Below are positions 15,897 through 55,525 of a DNA stretch of 64,000 bases, one piece after another. Each line of letters starts with the position of its first letter. The stretch's first letter is position 1. The translations under genes were made by a program, and so were the position numbers. Source of the stretch: Octopus vulgaris (taxonomy: Eukaryota); the NCBI GenBank assembly GCA_951406725.2, contig OX597829.1, forward strand, positions 41,230,001-41,294,000, written 5' to 3'. The notes under the pieces are model-generated. The model was not told the DNA's origin. It did not search any database and was given only the letters and a program-made list of their open reading frames with translations.

Positions 15897-18800
15897 CAAA
15901 TAAGAAAATGGAGAAATAAATTTAGTTAGTTCATCAACTTTCGGATATTAGAATGTTGGATTATTTATTCATTTAACAAAATGAGAACATCAATAGCATA
16001 CATATATATCTTATAATTCAATACATATAAGATAAGAATACAAATTATAAAAGTCATAATATAAAATCTGCCTGGAAAAGTTCGTTTGAAGTGACCAAGC
16101 ACTATAGGAACAAACGAAATTTCTGAAATTTTTTCTAAACAAATATAGGGATGGTATTATTAAAACACCAACACTGGTGGTAAGCGAATTATCAGCCGTA
16201 CAGGCAAATTAATAAAATATGTACATACAATATTAGATATGTACATATATACACAAGGGCACTACATGAGTACTGATATTAATTTTTTTGACTTCTATTT
16301 TTAGCGATATAGGTACTCATGTAGTACCCTTGTGTATATATGTACATGTCTAATATTGTATGTATATATTTTATTAATTTGCCTGTACGGTTAATAATTC
16401 GCTTACTACTCGTGTTGGTATTTTAATAATACCATCCCTATATTTTTATATATATATACATACACACACACACACACACGTATATACTGACAGGGGAGGT
16501 AACTGCCCCATGATCGTCTTGAGGATCAATCATATTAGGCCTCGTTTCACCTGTATATATATATCATCATCATCGTTTAACGTCCGCTTTCCATGCTAGC
16601 ATGGGTTGGACGGTTCAACTGGGGTCTGGCAAGCCCGAAGGCTACACCAGGCCAGTCAGATCTGGCAGTGTTTCTACAGCTGGATGCCCTTCCTAACGCC
16701 AACCACTCCGAGAGTGTAGTGGGTGATTTTATGTGCCACCGACACAGGTGGCAGACGGCCACGCTCGGATGGTGTTTTTTATGTGCCACCGACACAGGTG
16801 CCAGACGAGGCTGGCAGACGGCCACGCTCGGATGGTGTTTTTTATGTGCCACCGATACAGGTGCCAGACGAGGCTGGCAGACGGCCACACTCGGATATGG
16901 TGTTTTCGGTGTTTTTCTTATGTGCCACCGACACAGGTGCCAGATGAGGCATATATATATATATATATATAAATGTAGGCATAGCTTCCTAGGGTTTCTG
17001 GTTCAGTCCCACTGCATGGCATCTTGACCAAAGCCTTGTAAAAATTTTTATTGTGCATGTTTGTATGTGAGTATATATATTTATATGTACACACTCATTC
17101 GTGTGTGTATCTATTGTATTTTTTTTTGCTTTGTTGGCAGTGAGTTCTTCAGCTAGATATGAAAGTATGTTGACAAGGGTTAATTTGTTGATTAATCTCT
17201 TTGTAGTTTGCAATTTGATTTCATTTTAAACCGTTTTATTTTCGTTATCTTCATTTATCATAGTTTTACATTTATATGTTCCTTTGTTTGAGATTGAACT
17301 CACACTATTTTATTATAGATTACAGTTTCAAATATTCATTTCCACCAAACCATCCTCATCTTCGTCTACTAGAGAACAAAGGCTTGAGTATTAGTAAAAA
17401 GAAACCAGTATTATTGCTAATGTATTGTAGAACTGGAGCCATATACCAGCAAGCCGAGTTCAAAAGTCGGTTTTAGTTGGTCATAGTTATAAGTTATTTC
17501 CATTCACTTACATTTCTAAAACCATTATGAAAAGCATTAATGTATTTTAACATGTATAAGAAACACCCTAATTTTGGAAGCTTGAAATTTGCAATAATGG
17601 TTTTGTAAGGAATTATAATATTCATGTATAAGAAACCCCCATATTTTTTAACCTAATTTTTGACAAAAAATTGTTCAGTCCCACTGCGTGGCAACTTGGG
17701 CAAGGGTCTTCTACTATAGCCTCGGGCCAACCAAAGCCTTGTGAGTGGATTTGGTAGACGGAAACTGAAAGAAGCCCGTCATATATATGTTTGTGTTTGT
17801 CCCCCCCAACATCGCTTGACAACCGATGCTGGTGTGTTTATGTCCCCGTAACTTAGTGGTTCAGCAAAAGAGACCGATCGAATAAGTACTAGGCTTACAA
17901 AGAAGAAGTCTTGGGATCGATTTGCTCAGCTAAAGGCAGTGCTTCAGCATGGCCGCAGTCAAATGACTGAAACAAATAAAAGTATAAAAAGAAGAGGTTA
18001 AAATACGGTAATTTACTCTCCCTCGTAAATTGTATTTGGTTAAAAATAGATCAATTCTGTTACAGATGCAACCGGTACTACAAGAGGGGACAGTGTTGAT
18101 ACAAAACCAGACTACCTGGACACAGTTGTGAAGAAGGAACCGGGTGCATCTGATTCAGTGCATGATGACAACAATGCCAGTGATACAAATGATTGCAAAC
18201 TACATTCAGACTCAGTCGATGTGAAAGTACCTGTAGGATGCACAACAAATCCAAGCCTTATCGATATACTGCATATGGATCTAGCTGATGCACTGCAGCA
18301 AAACAAGCAGCTGCATCAGTTGGTGACACAACTGCATCAGCGGCATCACGAGAACACTTTAAAGGTTTGTGTTTACTTAATTTATGTGTGTGTCATCATC
18401 ATCATCATCGTTTAACGTCCGCTTTCCATGCTAGCATGGGTTGGACGATTTTGACTGAGGGCTGGCAAACCAGATGGCTGCAACAGGTTCCAATCTTGAT
18501 CCGGCAGTGTTTCTACAGCTGAATGCCCTTCCTAATGCCAACCACTCCGAGAGTGTAGTGGGTGCTTTTTTTACGTGCCACCGGCACGAGGGTCAGTCAG
18601 GTGGTACTGGCGACAACCTCGCTCGAATCTTTTTACACATGCTACCTGCTCGGGTGCCAGTAAGGCGACATTGGTGACAATCACACTCGAATGGTGCCCT
18701 TTTATGTGCCACCGGCATGGAAGCCTGTTGGCTGCTCTGGTAACGATCACGCTCAGATGGTGCTCTTGGCACCCTACTAGCACGAGCACAAGTGCCAGTA

Positions 18801-37022: not shown

Positions 37023-40000
37023 ATGTGTGTGTGTTGTGTATTTATATAATCATCATCATCAGTTAATGTCTGCCTTCCATGCTGTCATGTCTTGGATTGT
37101 TTGACAGGAGCTGGTCAGCTCTAAAGGATTGTGCCAAGCTCTACTGCCTGCCTCACCAAGTTCCACCTGACCCATGCAAGCATAGAAAAGTGGATGTTAG
37201 GTGATAACGAGTGTGTGTGTGTGCATGTGTATGTATGTATGTATATCATTATTTTACTGTCCGCTTTTCTATGCTTGCATGGGAAGGATGGAGTTTATTG
37301 AAGCAAATTTTCTATGGCCATATTTTCTTCCCGTTGCCAACAATCACCTGTAAGGTACTTGGAAAGTGAATATATAATTAAATTTTTGCATGAACATAAT
37401 TGAACATTAGAAAATTGCTATTTGTAAATCTCACAACGAGAGATATTCAGGAACAGTACTTTGGAGTAAAGATTGTTTGCCAACATAACATGGCAGATTG
37501 TGCCATATAGCCAGGTGGAGATGATGTCTCCTGAGGCTATATTACAGCAACATTCGTCCTAAACCAGGACTGCCATGTTATGTTGGCAAACAATCTTTTG
37601 TCCATAATTGAACATGCCTGAAGAGTGCAGCTCTCTCTCTTCTCTCTTTTCTCTTTCTCTCTCTCTCTTCTCTGTCCCTATTCTCTCTTCTCTCTCTGAC
37701 AAATGCATTCACATTCATTAAGATTTAATAATATTTTTCTTACTTTCCAATGTAGCGTGAAGAAGCGTTGCTCAGTGAAATGGATGTTACTGGCCAAGCA
37801 TTTGAGGACATGCAAGAACAGAATATGCGTTTGCTTCAGCAGTTAAAGGAGAAAGATGATGCCAACTTCAAGTTGATGTCAGAGGTTGGTGGATTTACTG
37901 GCTCTTATTTTATTTTATGTGCCAAAGATTCCAACGTCACCATCAAAATACAGGACCAGATACTGCAACAGCTTGGGTTTCAGAGGACCTCAGCTCTTCA
38001 ACATCCTCCCTAAATGCCTGAGAGACTTGCATGGTGTGGATGTGGGTTTCTTTAAAACTAAACTGGATCTCTTCTTGTTGGGGGTCCCAGATGAACCTAT
38101 CTCTCGGCAGGAGACACAGATGCAGGCAGCGGCATCGAACTCCCTTGTTGATCAAGTGCCACGTATCAGAGGTGGTTTCACATACTAGTGTAGCTCATTC
38201 AACGGTGGTGCCCCAGCATGGCCGCGGCCTTCGGGCTGAAGCATTTTTAAGGATTTAAGGACTAACTTGAGTAGAAATGTGTCAGTTGATAGGAGAATGA
38301 GATACATCATTTAAGACTGTGGTTCCCAACTAGGGTCCATGTAACAAAATAGTATATTGGGGGTCCACAATAGTATTTTAAGGGCCCTGAAAAGCCCTTG
38401 CTTTAGATGCAGGTACTGATATGTATTGCAAGAAAAGGTTTCTTTTCTCACATTTTACACACAAGTTAATGCGTAAAGAACAAAACAGAAATTTTGAAAG
38501 AAGTGTATATAAAACTTGTTTTTAAACATCGGATGGTTAGGTAGGGTCCACCAAAATAATATAATAATCAGAAGGGTCCAAGGTAAAATATGACTGAAAA
38601 TCCCTGATTTAAGAGATACATCTGTCTTCCATGCTGGCATAGGGTTGGACGGTTTGGTTAGAGTTGGAGAGCTGGGCCAGGTTCCAGTCATCTGTTTTTG
38701 GTTAAGCTGTATGGCTGGAAGCCCTTTCTAATACCTATTTCTTTACTTCCTCAGAGCTATATATATTTCTTTATTGCCCACAAGGGGCTAAACGTAGAGG
38801 GGACAAACAAGGACAGACAAACAGACTAAGTCGATTACATCGACCCCAGTGTGTAACTGGTACTTGTTTAATCGAGGATGAAAGGCAAAGTCGACCTTGG
38901 CGGAATTTGAACTCAGAACGTAACGACAGACTAAATACCACTAAGCATTTCGCCCGGCGTGCTAACGTTTCTGCCAGCTCGCCCTTCCTAATACCAACCA
39001 ATATAAAATAGCACACAGAGCATACAGAATGCTTTTTATATGACACTTGCACAGGTGCTTTTTACATAGCACTGGCACATGTTCTTCTTATATAGCACTA
39101 GCATGTGGTACTCCTGATGTACAACTGGCACAAGTACTTTTCTACGTAGAACTGGCACAGGTACTTTTTATGTGCCACCAGCATGAGTGTTTCTTTATGT
39201 AACTCTAGCATAGATGTTGCTTTACGTTACACTAACGCAAGGGTATTTTACATGGCACCAGTACAGGCAATTTTTACACGACATCAACACAAGTGCTTTC
39301 TACGTGGCACCAGTATGGGGGCTTTTTGCATGGCACCAGCATGTACATGAAATGATTGATATTGGTTATGTGTTGTAGAGATTGTCGTGAGTGGCGGGAA
39401 TTGTCACACATCACTTTCATAGCATAAGTTATCTGAAGGTATACACACAAACTGAATGATAATGATTATCGGCTCAGATAATAAAACAATTATATAAAAT
39501 ATATATATACATCCGTCTATACAAACATGTTTTGTATGTGTGTATATGTCTATATACACATGTATGTGTGTATATATCAAAATCAATGGAAATTGTAGTT
39601 GTGATACCAGAGCCGGTGGCACGTAAGAGAACCATACGAACATGGCCGTTGCCAGCGCCGCCCCGAATGGCCTCCGTGCCGGTGGCACGTAAAAAGCACC
39701 CACTACACTCACGGAGTGGTTGGCATTAGGAAAGGCATCCAGCTGTAGAAACACTGCCAGATCAGACTGGGCCTTTGTGCTGCCTTCTGGTTTCCCAGAC
39801 TCCAGTTAAACTGTCCAACCCATGCTAAGCGGACGTTAAACGATGATGATGATGACATGCATGTACATATACAAACATGTATGTATATATAGCTATAGAT
39901 ATATAGATACAGACACACACTCACACACACACTCATCATCAAAACCGGAACAGAATCCATCCTCTTATTTTCATTTTCAACACACACACAAAAACAATTT

Positions 40001-49821: not shown

Positions 49822-50656
49822 AATTGATTGTCTAAGCAGGAGTATAATAAATAATGTCTTTTTGAAATCCCACCAGACACAAAGCATAATCTTTTTCATG
49901 AATATTTCGCTTTGGTAACTGTTTAACTACAGAAAGCTCAGAACCATTTCCACACTATCCTTGACAATCCATTTAAGATCTCATCATCATCATCATTTAA
50001 CGTCCACTTTCCATGCAAGCGATGTTGGGGGGACAAACACAGACACACAAACATATACACACACACATATATATATATACGATGGGCTTCTTTCAGTTTC
50101 CATCTACCAAATCCACTCCCAAGGCTTTGCTCGGCCCGAGGCAATAGTAGAAGACACTTGCCCCAGTGGGACTGAACCCAAAACCATGTGGTTGGTAAGC
50201 AAGCTATTTACCATACAGCCACTCCTATGCCTATTAGCTGGTTAAATGGCCAATATAAAGTCTCCCTAAATTGAGATGTCTTTGGTGAGACAAGACTAAA
50301 GGGATCTCTGAACTCAATTTTTCTTCTGTTCCTTCACTAAACACTCTAGAGAGTTGTGGTGAGGATTGGGGTGTTTTTGTCAAGGCACCAGCATGGGTAG
50401 GGGTCGTTTTATACACTCTCACTCAAGATAATGTGACAAAGAAATACAAATTATCAACAAAGACAATCATCAAATCTCAAAAGATTCTTAACAAAGGTAA
50501 GATTCATATTAGAAGAAATAATTCAGGTAACAAACTGCAGACACCCTTGTGGAATGTGTGACATAAATCAAACAGGGAATAACCAAAAGATTCAAGAATG
50601 GGAAGAAATTGAAGGTTAATGCAAACATGAACTGCAAAACAAAAAAAAATCTTGTG

Positions 50657-51590
50657 GTAAAGATTGTTTGCCAGCATAACATGGCAGTCCTGGTTTAGGG
50701 CAAATGTTGCTGTAATTTAGCCCCAGGAGACATTGTCTCCAGCTGTCTATACGACATGATCTGTGTCCTTATATTTTTGAACAAAGGAATCTAGCATCCC
50801 TGCTCAGCTCAAAATAATATCTGTGTATCATGATTTCTGGTGTATTTCTCTTCATCGGCACATAATAATTCTTCGGCTAGAGATTACCAAATTCCCGTTC
50901 GAAATATAAAGTTTTCGAAGTGACAACTAGTCACTGATTTATAAATTAGAAAATTACTATTTTTAAATCTCACAACGTGAGATATTCAGCAACAGTACTT
51001 TGGAGTAAAGATTGTTGATGATGGGGAAATAACCCAGAAATTGCAATACACAGATATTGTTTTAGGTTGAGTGGAGATGCTAGATTCCCTTGTTCCAAAA
51101 TATAAGGACACAGATCATGTCGTATAGACAGCTGGAGACGATGTCTCCTGGGACTAAATTACAGCAACATTCGTCCTAAACCAGGACTGCCATGTTATGC
51201 TGGCAAACAATCTTTACTACAAAGTACTGTTGTTGAATAATTTACAAATAGAAATTTTCTAATTTATAAATCAGTGACTACAAAGTACTGTTAAATCTCA
51301 CGTGAGATATTCAGCAACAGTACTTTGGAGTAAAAGTTGTTTGCCAACATAACATGGCAGTCCTGGTTTAGGACTAATGTTGGTGTAATTTAGCCCCAGG
51401 AGACATCGTCTCCAGCTGGCTATACAACACGATCTGTGTCCTTATATTTTGGAACAAGGGAATCTAGTACCCCCACTCAGCTCAAAACAATATCTGTGTA
51501 TTGCAATTTCCGGGTTATTTCCCATCATCAGCAACCTTTACTCCAAAGTACTGTTGTTGAATATCTCATGTGAGATTCAAAAATAGTAAT
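50657..51590. mobile_element. Cluster of hammerhead-containing ~348-bp repeat units in alternating orientation (retrozyme- or Penelope-pLTR-like)
   Basis: Three copies of the same block in -,+,- order; gtaaagattgt recurs at 50657 and 51005, giving one full permuted monomer; a related fragment lies at 37408-37602. Confidence 0.7.
51495..51535 (-). ncRNA. Minimal hammerhead ribozyme motif; paralogous degenerate copies at 51012-51052 (+) and 50822-50863 (-)
   Basis: Minus strand reads CTGATGA-t.ggg/aaataa/ccc.g-GAAA-ttgcaa-TA^caca; the copy at 50822-50863 retains stem I tgtg/caca. Confidence 0.65.
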
Positions 51591-52092
51591 TTTCAAAAAA
51601 AATTCTCATTTACTGCACCATTTGACCACTATACTAAATAGGATCAAAATTAATACACTGGGTAAGAGTACATAAATGACAAATCAAAGATTTATCGCTT
51701 AGAAATGTTGACGTAGTGAATTATTAAACATTTGTGCAAATGGAAGATTCAAAATGTTTCTTTTTTTGTCAAAATAAAGGAAAAAAATTATCAACTACAA
51801 AAGTCAACAGAATACTTTATAAGGATTCCAAAATCTGAAACTAAACCAGAAATAGTCAACACCACTGTTAAAAACATCTACATCTAAACAGATTACACCA
51901 TAACGTGTTTGAAAAAGTTATATATTACAAAAATATCCTTCCATAAAATATGTGTCATTCTGTTATCTTTTTCAAGATGTTTTTTTTTATATATAATTAA
52001 TAATTTCTATTTTTAAAATATTCTTAAAATATTGTGACTGCATCAAGTAATTTTTCAAAAAACAAAATTCATATATACACACACACACACAA

Positions 52093-52124
<32 letters not shown>

Positions 52125-52829
52125 ATATATTATATACCGATGATTAAGTAAATTGCAAAATAATAATAAAAACGTATATATTTGGCAGAATAACGTTTTT
52201 ATTATTATTTTGCAATTTACTTAAAAATCGGTATATTATTGTTATTTTAATTTTAATATTTCTTTTATATGTAATTTTCTAGATGGTATAATTTAATTGT
52301 TCATTTTGAATTGATAAAAGGTGGTTTTTTCTAATTTTTTTATATATATATATATATATTGAAATTTGATTTAGTATTTCTAAATTGAATTTTTCCCTGT
52401 CAGTTAGGAATAATATTCCCTCAAATAATTATCATATCTATATATATATATATATATGAAACATTTTTTTTTTGTCAAAATAAATGAATATTTTTGTAAT
52501 GAACCAGTACGTTTTTAGATATGATAGACAAATGGTTGGGTAAAAAAACAATTATATGTGAATATGTGTGCAAAGATGTTACAGTAACACATTGATGCAG
52601 TTTAATTTCCTTATATTTTCATCATTTTTGTTTTACTTACAATGAAATAAAAGATCTCAGTAAGGGGAATCTAATTCTGTAAACCTCATTAAAATTGGTG
52701 TGTGAAACAAAAAGGGCTCAAATTGGAAATGGAGAGGTTGTGTTGTGATTAACAGGTTGACTTATCAACAGTAATTAACAAGTTGCAAGGAAGAAATTAC
52801 ATCTTCAACAATGCTTATTAATAGATAAA

Positions 52830-54415
52830 CTAAATATTTGTAGTATTATAAGAGATATAATGATTTAAAGGCAATCTACTATAATAATACTCTTGTGTTT
52901 TTCTGTCACAACATATGAATGAGAAAGGAAGGGGTGATGGTAAAGTGGTAGCGGTATGATGGAAATAATATGGTGAAAAAAAAATCAAACAGCATTTCAA
53001 CTCAGTGTGAGTAGATGTGTGTGTATGCAAAAGGGAGGTACAATTTGATCTATGTCTGTTATGTGTGCAAATCAAGAGATAGGGGAATTGCTAAAATACT
53101 GGAGCTGGAATATATTAATTTAGGACATATTGTGGCTGCTGTGCCGGTGGCACGTAAAAAGCACCAACTGTTCATGGTCGTTGCCAGCCTACCCTGACAC
53201 CCGTGCCGGTGGCACCTAAAAAGCACCATCCGTATGTGACCAATGCCAGCACCGCCTTGACTGGCTTCCATGCCAGTGGCACGTAAAAAGCACGAACCGA
53301 TCATGGCCGTTGCCAGCCTACCCTGGCACGTAACAAGCACCATCCGTATGTGGCTGATGTCAGCGTTGCCTTGACTGGCTTCCGTGCCGGCGGCACATAA
53401 AAACCACCAACCGATCGTTGCCATTGCCAGCCTCCCTTGGCACCTGTGCCAGTAGTATGTAAAAAGCACCCACTACACTCACGGGGTGGTTGGAGTTAGG
53501 AAGGGCATCCAGCTGTAGAAACAGATCAGACTGGGCCTGGTGCAGCCTCCTGGCTTCCCAGACCCCGGTCGAACCATCCAACCCATGCTAGCATGGAAAA
53601 TGGACGTTAAACTATGATGATGATGATGATGATTCTAGTTTCATAGAATAATCCCATAGAGAGAAAAGTCAAGGATGAGAATTGTCTTGTTAAATGTAGG
53701 TCTGATGAAGCATAGCCTTCAGCTGCAATAAGAAAAAAAATATTTAGAGCTGAACTCCAGGAGTTTTAATAAGCATGCCAAAAAGTTCTACAGGAAACTT
53801 TTAGGTACTAAAATTAACTGGGTTTTTTTGCCCAGCAAAAACTGAAGTCAAAAGATGACTGGCTGGAAAAAATGTTTTATTAGAAAGTTCAGGGATTTTG
53901 CCAAAATTTAGCCATTATTATTTGCCAGCAGATTTGACTTTCAAACTTAAATGCTCTTGGTTTGAATTCAAGGAAGACTTTCTGCTACAAGAGTAATATT
54001 TGATACTAGCTAGACCCATGCTGTCAAAAATGACGGCTAATTGTATTATTTTATATATAAATAAGGTACATAATAATCACGCATACACACATTCACATAC
54101 TTCCCTTGTACACACACATGCACATGTAGTCACATGGAGTTGAAACACTGTTTGATTTTTCTTTTCGCCTTTGAATGTTCACCATCACACTTCCATTGTA
54201 CAGACTCAAACATTCACATACCTCCCTTTTACATAAACACACATCTACTCACACTGAGTTGAAACACTGTTTGATTATTTTTTTTACCATATTATTTCCA
54301 TCATACCACTACCACTTTACCAGCACCCCTTCCTTTCTCATTCATATGTTGTGACAGAGAAAAACACAAGAGTATTATTATAGTAGATGGCCTTTATATC
54401 ATTATATCTCTTATT
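52830..54415. repeat. Inverted pair of about 210-bp repeat fragments (52845-53050 vs 54205-54415), probably Helitron-derived
   Basis: gtcacaacatatgaatgagaaaggaaggggtg is reverse-complemented at 54325-54355; minus-strand hairpin plus CTAG near 54005-54040. Confidence 0.6.
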
Positions 54416-54514
54416 TTAAAAGACAATGAAGTATAACTAAAGATTTCTCAAAAGATCTAAGTGAGAGGAATCTAATATTGAAAACCACACAAGTGTCACC
54501 CAGCTGTCATATAT

Positions 54515-54678
54515 ACCGTATTTTAACATGCACAAAGAACCCTTTTTTGTCAAAAATTGGGTTCCAAAAATATGGGACTTTCTTATACATGGATAGTATT
54601 AAAATCTCTTACAAAACTTTTTTTCCAGATTTAAGCCCCAAAAATTAGGGGGTTCCTTATACACATTAAAATATGGTA
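54515..54678. mobile_element. Tigger/pogo-like MITE
   Basis: TA-ccgtattttaa ... ttaaaatatgg-TA termini; a related copy is split by a SINE at about 17540-18010. Confidence 0.5.
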
Positions 54679-54688
54679 TATATATATA

Positions 54689-55119
54689 TAGGGCTAAATA
54701 GCGGTGATGTAATTCCCTTTATGGGACTGTCACGTTATGTTGGCAGTATACAACCACTCTATCGCTCCACCATCGCTCATGTCTCTTTGAGACATTAAGA
54801 AATTCAATATTTCTAATTACGGTGATCAGTGAATAAATTTCACTGTAAATATATATATATTTGCGAGGGCTTGGCAAGTATCTCAACTAGTAGGACTTGC
54901 TACCCTGGACTGATGACGGGCAAGACCCAGAAACATGCATGTCTTCAGGTGCTAATCCTAGCTGGTGGGGGGTGCTTGCCTCCCCTTTGCAAGTATAAGG
55001 ACACAGGAAATGTGTCAAAGTCGACAGGAAGCGTTGATGCTTCCTAGGGTTAAATGGCGGTGGTGTAATTCCCTTTATGAGACTGTCACGTTATGTTGAC
55101 AGAATACAACCGCTATATC
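54689..55119 (+). mobile_element. Hammerhead-containing partial tandem repeat, 356-bp period (retrozyme- or Penelope-pLTR-like)
   Basis: 75-bp direct repeat at 54689-54763 and 55045-55119 with a hammerhead between; starts in a (TA)n tract. Confidence 0.7.
54904..54949 (+). ncRNA. Minimal type I hammerhead ribozyme motif
   Basis: cctgga-CTGATGA-c.ggg/caaga/ccc.a-GAAA-catgcatg-TC^ttcagg; stem I cctgga/ttcagg; palindromic stem III; GUC site at 54943. Confidence 0.8.
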
Positions 55120-55525
55120 ATCATCATCATCATCGTCGTTTAGCGTCCGTTTTCCATGCTAGCATGGGTTGGACGGTTCTACTGGGGTCTGTGAAGCCAG
55201 AAGGCTTCATCAGGCCCAGTCAAATCTGGCAGTGTTTCTACGCCTGAATGCCCTTCCTAACGCCAACCACTCCGTGAGTGTAGTGGGTGCTTTTTACGTG
55301 CCATTATCTTTTTCTTGTTTCAGTCATGAGACTGTGGCCATGTTGAGGCACTGCTTTGAAGAATTTTTAGCCAAATGAATTGACCCCAGTACATATTTTT
55401 TTAAACCTTTTATTCTATCATTCTCTTTGATGAAGTTAGGGGGTGAGCGAACACACCAGCACAGGTTGTCACGCAATAGTGGGGAACAAGCACACGTGTA
55501 TGTGTGTGTGTGTATATATATGTTT

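Follow-up and report, generated by a model that had tools for sequence, protein, structure and literature searches.

Organization of the locus

We analyzed a 64,000-nt stretch of Octopus vulgaris DNA (assembly GCA_951406725.2, contig OX597829.1, positions 41,230,001 to 41,294,000 of the forward strand; called the window here), which holds copies of a dispersed element built from non-coding units of approximately 350–360 nt that carry a predicted type I hammerhead ribozyme. The initial annotation of this DNA had singled out two such units, (i) and (ii), as candidate retrozymes. These belong to A and B, which are subfamilies of one element family with thousands of genomic copies. Unit (i), read on the minus strand from 51015 to 50657, has ACAATCTTTAC at both termini, and its 359 nt are made up of 348 + 11 nt, as described. 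Unit (ii) (54689–55119) has a periodicity of 356 nt with an overlap of 75 nt that is 89% alike. The common blocks, their order and a covarying hairpin were recovered in both units, and A and B are colinear along the entire unit with an identity of 68% between natural monomers. An alignment of 12 natural A and B copies is also colinear across the full unit and keeps the shared blocks and the covarying hairpin. Neither unit has an open reading frame (ORF) of note: the longest ones starting with ATG are only 28 and 26 codons, and in A, B and D–G (the younger subfamilies are described below) they range from 26 to 50 codons. The GC content of A–C is 36–45%.

The description of unit (i) as a free-standing monomer had to be revised. 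It is the left arm of a larger A insertion of approximately 940 bp (50657–51597) that is made of four arms, has a rearranged middle and is flanked by a probable 13-bp target-site duplication. Unit (i) begins at a head-to-head junction and not at a permutation point. A second A insertion, a pair at 37406–37604 that lies beyond the two units first described, is bounded by an exact 13-bp duplication (37395–37407 and 37603–37615). All three A hammerheads in the window are incomplete, and the B copy has one hammerhead only, with a C-A mismatch at the base of stem II; neither insertion would be able to free a monomer by double cleavage. The hammerhead of unit (i) is predicted to be inactive. The B copy diverges from the column majority by 5.4%. 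The window copies of A and B are probably dead, ordinary old copies.

Copy number and insertion ends

Exact matches to the hammerhead core together with TAAGGACACAG numbered at least 745, and those to the 3′ block at least 2427, while the controls gave 0 in both cases. These exact-pattern counts are lower bounds, and they show that the family is not a product of chance. DNA searches of the 2.8-Gb genome with the two window units returned 3137 and 3106 first-look candidates, of which the best 40 were scored in each case. Two cores spaced one period apart were found 1084 times (control, 161).

The ends were surveyed at the first 30 matches on contig C1 for each of the two patterns (60 loci of the 745 and 2427). 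This gave 46 insertions with a total of 81 arms, counting only arms of 40 nt or more; positions are numbered from the predicted cleavage site. The 3′ ends fall near +174 (37 arms; called E1 here), near +226 (37 arms; E2) or elsewhere (7 arms). The two end windows together span approximately 15% of the unit yet hold 74 of the 81 ends. E1 and E2 are approximately 52 nt apart, and the extra stretch, of 46–55 nt, corresponds to a Penelope-type "tail". The 5′ ends are scattered across the whole unit. Twelve arms are longer than one period; A and B copies mostly have fewer than two units, and only one sampled arm is long enough to hold two hammerheads. The cleavage site is crossed by 43 of the 81 arms, and two arms stop within 5 nt of it. 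The junction at this site is ungapped in 64/65, 50/55 and 31/31 crossings. The suggestion that the template exceeded one unit is borne out by these crossings and by the existence of multimers. The proposed difference in permutation points is not: both window units end at one homologous 3′ site (+169 and +175), and since 74 of the 81 arms also terminate at one of two sites, the ends are fixed rather than permuted, and only the 5′ ends vary. What stands of the proposal is a retrozyme-type, non-coding, multi-copy family without an attached Penelope ORF.

Head-to-head pairs of arms make up 31 of the 46 insertions. Their outer ends are E1+E2 in 27 pairs, E2+E2 in two, and E1 with another end in two; among the 29 classed A/B pairs, the combination of E1 and E2 (27 pairs) has a p value of 8e-7. 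Target-site duplications of at least 8 nt were present in 37 of 64 pairs, as opposed to 5% for mismatched flanks; simple repeats account for about 8 of the 37. The duplications measure 7–16 bp. An assembly fold-back artefact was considered and rejected, since the arms stop at different fixed sites and carry duplications, and since the arms of old pairs differ by 7–9%.

Table 1. Features of the retrozyme-type insertions in the window (positions within the window; E1 and E2 are the two fixed 3′ ends)
Feature	Position	Strand	Remarks
A arm, unit (i), 1.03 units	50657..51016	-	3′ end at the short end E1 (+169)
Predicted hammerhead of unit (i)	50826..50858	-	CCGATGA core, palindromic stem III, stem II disrupted
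Second A arm	51013..51280	+	head-to-head with unit (i); starts within hammerhead core (51015–51048); 5′ strand of stem I lost
Third A arm	51292..51533	-	core 51499–51531 intact; 5′ strand of stem I lost at junction
Fourth A arm	51532..51597	+	ends at the long tailed end E2 (+225); right edge of the whole insertion
Probable 13-bp target-site duplication, left copy	50640..50652	+	12/13 match to 51594–51606
Probable target-site duplication, right copy	51594..51606	+	pairs with 50640..50652
B single arm, unit (ii), 1.2 units	54689..55119	+	3′ end at E1 (+175)
Predicted type I hammerhead of unit (ii)	54910..54943	+	CTGATGA, GAAA, palindromic stem III, TC cleavage triplet end, 6-bp stem I
Minimal A insertion	37406..37604		two head-to-head arms, the minus one ending at E2 and the plus one at E1; no hammerhead
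Decayed Penelope-like ORF remnant (linker to GIY-YIG start)	50458..50652	+	weak match: tblastn E 0.001, blastx E 9e-5
Continuation of remnant past the A insertion (GIY-YIG part)	51641..51765	+	weak match: blastx E 0.005 and 0.28

Younger subfamilies and multimers

The genome holds a series of at least seven subfamilies, from copies decayed by approximately 5% to copies identical between loci, all with Penelope ends. Subfamily C has a unit of 363 nt, a CCGATGA core and the same two ends, and its best matches are 95–98% alike. Within C insertions, the two arms match at 91 of 97 polymorphic cells and the tandem units at 34 of 39, whereas between insertions the match is 3903 of 5974. Three raw RNA runs (approximately 6% of each) and one contig set compared with a C copy covered the unit nowhere except for a few diverged reads at 1516–1563. 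C may be absent from the organism of these runs, and small circles are lost from standard cDNA libraries, so the comparison speaks neither for nor against a circle.

Four further subfamilies, D–G, were described from 20 loci picked by hand from the first 100 of the 1084 two-core matches. Their units are colinear with those of A and B, at 57–67% identity. Their pairs are E1+E2 in 16 of 18 cases, and 13 of the 18 inner junctions overlap by 0–5 nt. The head-to-head insertions of D include long multimers in (TA)n, with arms of 14.7+8.4, 9.1+3.1, 6.3+2.4 and 3.2+3.8 units, whose units are 99.6–100% alike to one reference unit. (TA)n targets are common to C–F and to a young autonomous Penelope-like element (PLE) resident in the same genome. 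A 37-nt D motif has 2157 exact matches genome-wide; the first 100 of these form 34 clusters, 22 of them head-to-head. Near-identical 360-nt multimers, within and between loci, are seen at L211:636-8961 (G000:C1:161875800-161885700) and also at L212, L215 and L218. Subfamily D looks currently active.

Variants were compared in 65 full D units from 12 insertions. Those fixed in an insertion are present in all its units, private variants included; in insertion L215, a private change occurs in 6/6 units, across both arms. None of the 11 partial variants recurs in another insertion.

Further hammerhead dimers of other subfamilies were noted at G000:C14:68436731, C15:76300561 and C3:20429242. An additional hammerhead family forms an overlapping head-to-head palindrome at L162:1951-1966, and in L157:5554 it lies upstream of a PLE ORF fragment.

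The predicted hammerhead

An Rfam scan of the window found no hammerhead family at the gathering score or at E≤10. The matches that were returned at E≤10 are hairpin and microsatellite look-alikes and were dismissed as chance or fold-back. Because Rfam gave none, the element is assigned to this class of ribozyme by its motif and by covariation. In 22 copies of A, B and C chosen by hand, 86% of the stem cells are paired, and 12 of the 17 pairs show changes on both sides. Stem I continues as a long rod; stem III has a palindromic sequence. The circular folds of seven reference monomers have z scores of −3.3 to −6.7. The earlier statement that the hammerhead stems differ in sequence and keep pairing applies across subfamilies, as the covariation indicates; in unit (i), stem II is broken. 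A motif scan requiring a paired stem II missed the hammerhead of unit (i), and the stretch tested there folds no better than its shuffles. The CCGATGA (U4C) core is present in the unit (i) copy and in C, and U4C is fixed in the youngest subfamilies. A literature search on whether U4C cores cleave found nothing. Both arms of one B insertion (L012) share the core change GTGATGA; either a ribozyme-dead template was mobilized or the arms were converted.

Penelope-like elements in the genome

The A insertion at 50657–51597 appears to split an old Penelope-like ORF where the GIY-YIG domain begins, as the weak matches on the two sides of the insertion suggest (Table 1). Around 99 A/B insertions, the 45 5′ flanks have no common element body. 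Of the 99, 7 have a PLE ORF fragment within 1.5 kb, with varying side and orientation; the background of one hit in 14 control stretches of 10 kb is too small to decide on an excess. The absence of a consistently attached reverse transcriptase (RT)/GIY-YIG ORF, as initially proposed, agrees with these 99 insertions; the units at L004 and in the window split such an ORF instead. Units sit in older PLE ORFs at window 50640-51765, L004 and L189, and homing to PLE sequence is possible, with a thin background.

Autonomous PLEs are resident, with 148 GIY-YIG matches among the best 150 of 6136 candidates. Many of these matches belong to a 781-aa RT+GIY-YIG ORF, ten copies of which are 96.5–99.7% alike (mean 98.7%). 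The resident elements end at (TA)n and have tails of approximately 35 nt. In the young family seen at L076–L085 and L089, with (TA)n and a 35-nt tail, a 479-aa ORF precedes the 781-aa ORF, and the core of a hammerhead-like motif is degenerate in 11/11 copies viewed. A second PLE family (L086, L087, L090) has a CCGAAGA or CTGAAGA hammerhead core in its pseudo-long terminal repeat (pLTR) and a tail of approximately 35 nt. Apparent subfamily matches in the flanks of L083 and L086 turned out to be separate insertions and not pLTR homology. A protein search for the partner returned only unnamed RT/GIY-YIG relatives.

Proposed mode of transposition

We read the features observed directly (the unit, the covariation-supported hammerhead fold, the two fixed 3′ ends and random 5′ ends, the head-to-head arms, the duplications and the homogeneous young multimers) as the work of a non-autonomous, Penelope-mobilized retrozyme whose probably circular RNA would be reverse-transcribed from both strands of a staggered cut, and we consider this reading likely. 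That the element is non-autonomous and depends on Penelope is very probable. Priming from both target strands is quite probable, and the template was, by our estimate, rather likely a circle. In the proposed cycle, a copy with at least two hammerheads would be transcribed and would self-cleave into monomers, which a host ligase would close into circles. A Penelope enzyme acting in trans would nick both target strands approximately 7–16 bp apart, and on each strand cDNA would start at one of two internal sites, which lie approximately at +174 and +226 relative to the cleavage site, a different one for each strand. Each cDNA would run round the template and stop at a random point, and the two cDNA ends would be joined with an overlap of 0–5 nt.

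Published work on PLEs and retrozymes provides precedents. The PLE signature consists of a target-site duplication together with a tail at one end and a truncated copy in inverted orientation, and the duplications of endonuclease-bearing PLEs measure 8–10 bp (PMC3846280; 10.1101/2021.04.23.441226). The enzyme of an anole PLE is described as cleaving and extending both strands, with two internal starts that define the tail, and is predicted to be a dimer (PMC11167929). Circles as templates for cDNA of more than one unit were proposed for PLEs (PMC4209133) and for retrozymes (PMC7229834).

A closely related alternative keeps the non-autonomous PLE derivative and replaces the circle by an uncleaved linear multimer transcribed from existing arrays, with the hammerhead incidental. 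Unprocessed RNA was the main substrate of the anole PLE (PMC11167929), possible source arrays reach approximately 15 units, U4C cores are fixed in the youngest subfamilies, and the precise junctions are equally compatible with uncleaved RNA. Copying that truncates at the 5′ end, however, shortens arrays and makes it hard to fix a new variant in every unit, whereas in D several haplotypes are each fixed in every unit and partial variants are not shared between insertions. Stem pairing is also kept across subfamilies that are only 57–78% alike. We regard the linear template as unlikely. Because all units of a D insertion share a haplotype, a circle is favored; the uniform haplotypes point to a monomer bottleneck rather than to the copying of linear arrays, without proving it. 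The inverted arm could also arise not by second-strand priming but by self-priming, from an antisense template (Arkhipova et al. 2013) or by later DNA rearrangement. Palindromes at the inverted junction prompted a proposal of this kind for rotifer PLEs (PMC3846280), and the window A insertion does have a rearranged middle. Such origins are nonetheless very improbable, given that the outer ends comprise one E1 and one E2 far above chance, that arm lengths vary freely, that target-site duplications abut both ends and that most inner junctions overlap by 0–5 nt. Although every end feature is PLE-like, and ORF fragments do lie near a few insertions, we give hardly any credence to the idea that the units are plain pLTR remnants left by an autonomous Penelope element that was truncated. 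Going upstream from the fixed ends, one always re-enters the preceding unit, the 5′ flanks share no body, the nearby fragments lack a consistent side or orientation or are themselves split by the units, and the closed 360-nt multimers largely refute it.

Several points weigh against two-strand priming on a circular, Penelope-copied template. Cleavage and circles are predictions from the DNA sequence, and so is any cleavage activity of the U4C core of C and D. The anole PLE needed no hammerhead cleavage in vitro and used its two starts without strand preference (PMC11167929), and 8 of 9 Xenopus retrozyme dimers failed to cleave (10.64898/2026.07.22.740005). The covariation stems from few subfamily-level events, and its count of pairs with two-sided change was reached in 57 of 500 shuffles. 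The pattern used to select D–G favors multimers, a later duplication seems to have produced the A trimer L039, and not all D arrays are uniform (one variant is in 5/6 units of L214 and one in 2/4 units of L217). Resident PLE tails measure approximately 35 nt as against 46–55 nt in the retrozyme units, and no pLTR homology to any subfamily was found in 35 GIY-YIG-anchored PLE stretches (150 of 6136 candidates scored).

For subfamily D, we tentatively propose, at somewhat less than even confidence, an active 360-nt circle that would be copied by a dimer of the Penelope enzyme from two starts 46 nt apart, one per nicked strand, giving palindromic multimers of up to 8 kb. If true, this would be direct genomic evidence for the transposition mode of animal retrozymes, and the one-end tail and inverted copy of Penelope elements would be explained generally by obligate two-strand priming.

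Comparison with known systems

Non-LTR retrozymes are an established class, for which an origin from PLEs was put forward in 2026. The metazoan non-LTR retrozymes (Acropora; Mytilus, 350–390 bp; axolotl, 330/350 bp; Cervera and de la Pena 2020, PMC7229834) have the same unit size as the octopus units and the same GC content as A–C. They likewise have a type I hammerhead with a palindromic stem III, tandem units, no ORF, a highly paired predicted circle and long target-site duplications, and an axolotl motif shares with A and B a basal mismatch in stem II. Unlike these, the octopus copies are mostly dispersed, 5′-truncated and head-to-head with two fixed 3′ ends, and circles and cleavage were demonstrated there, while the octopus family is known from its DNA. 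The main text of PMC7229834 contains neither the word "inverted" nor the word "tail".

Li, Clavereau and Pollet (2026; 10.64898/2026.07.22.740005) made the same proposal of PLE origin and mobilization and describe a variable share of monomers. Their case is built on co-occurrence and on homology of pLTRs across 35 species, none of them a mollusc; ours is built on the insertion signature, with no pLTR homology found in the 35 PLE stretches compared. In the main text of that preprint, "inverted" and "tail" are absent except for one reference title.

Penelope/Poseidon and Neptune elements have a pLTR, an inverted 5′-truncated copy, a 30–40 bp tail on one end and a target-site duplication. The octopus units resemble endonuclease-bearing PLEs in their one-end tail, head-to-head copy, duplications of 7–16 bp, hammerhead upstream of the RT starts and, in the young subfamilies, microsatellite targets. 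They differ from Penelope/Poseidon and Neptune in having no ORF, a closed unit of 350–363 nt, a tail of 46–55 nt and two arms that can both be long multimers.

Our literature search found no report of a cephalopod retrozyme and no head-to-head retrozyme multimers. An octopus repeat annotation from 2026 gives 30 Penelope families as recently active, and its main text does not mention ribozymes (PMC13282606). The units may already be filed in repeat libraries under a Penelope or satellite name. The insertion signature was not found in the main texts of the retrozyme papers compared.

A 2020 review states that retrozyme repeats show no motif hinting at a mobilizing partner (PMC7761336), and the 2026 preprint considers the mechanism of mobilization still to be elucidated (10.64898/2026.07.22.740005). 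The present finding bears on which enzyme moves animal retrozymes and on whether circles serve as templates for transposition. What makes it of interest is the insertion signature and the young subfamilies, not the two old copies in the window, and the youngest subfamily is a ready substrate for tests of cleavage, circularization and two-strand priming.

Other repeats in the window

Copies of a common dispersed repeat with internal tandem units of 63–137 nt lie at 53133-53633 and 55117-55300, with further copies at 16749, 18654, 39030, 42861 and 58401. The segments 52848-53040 and 54219-54414 form an inverted duplication, approximately 1.2–1.4 kb apart and 92–96% complementary. A 47-bp hairpin is located at 52129-52239.

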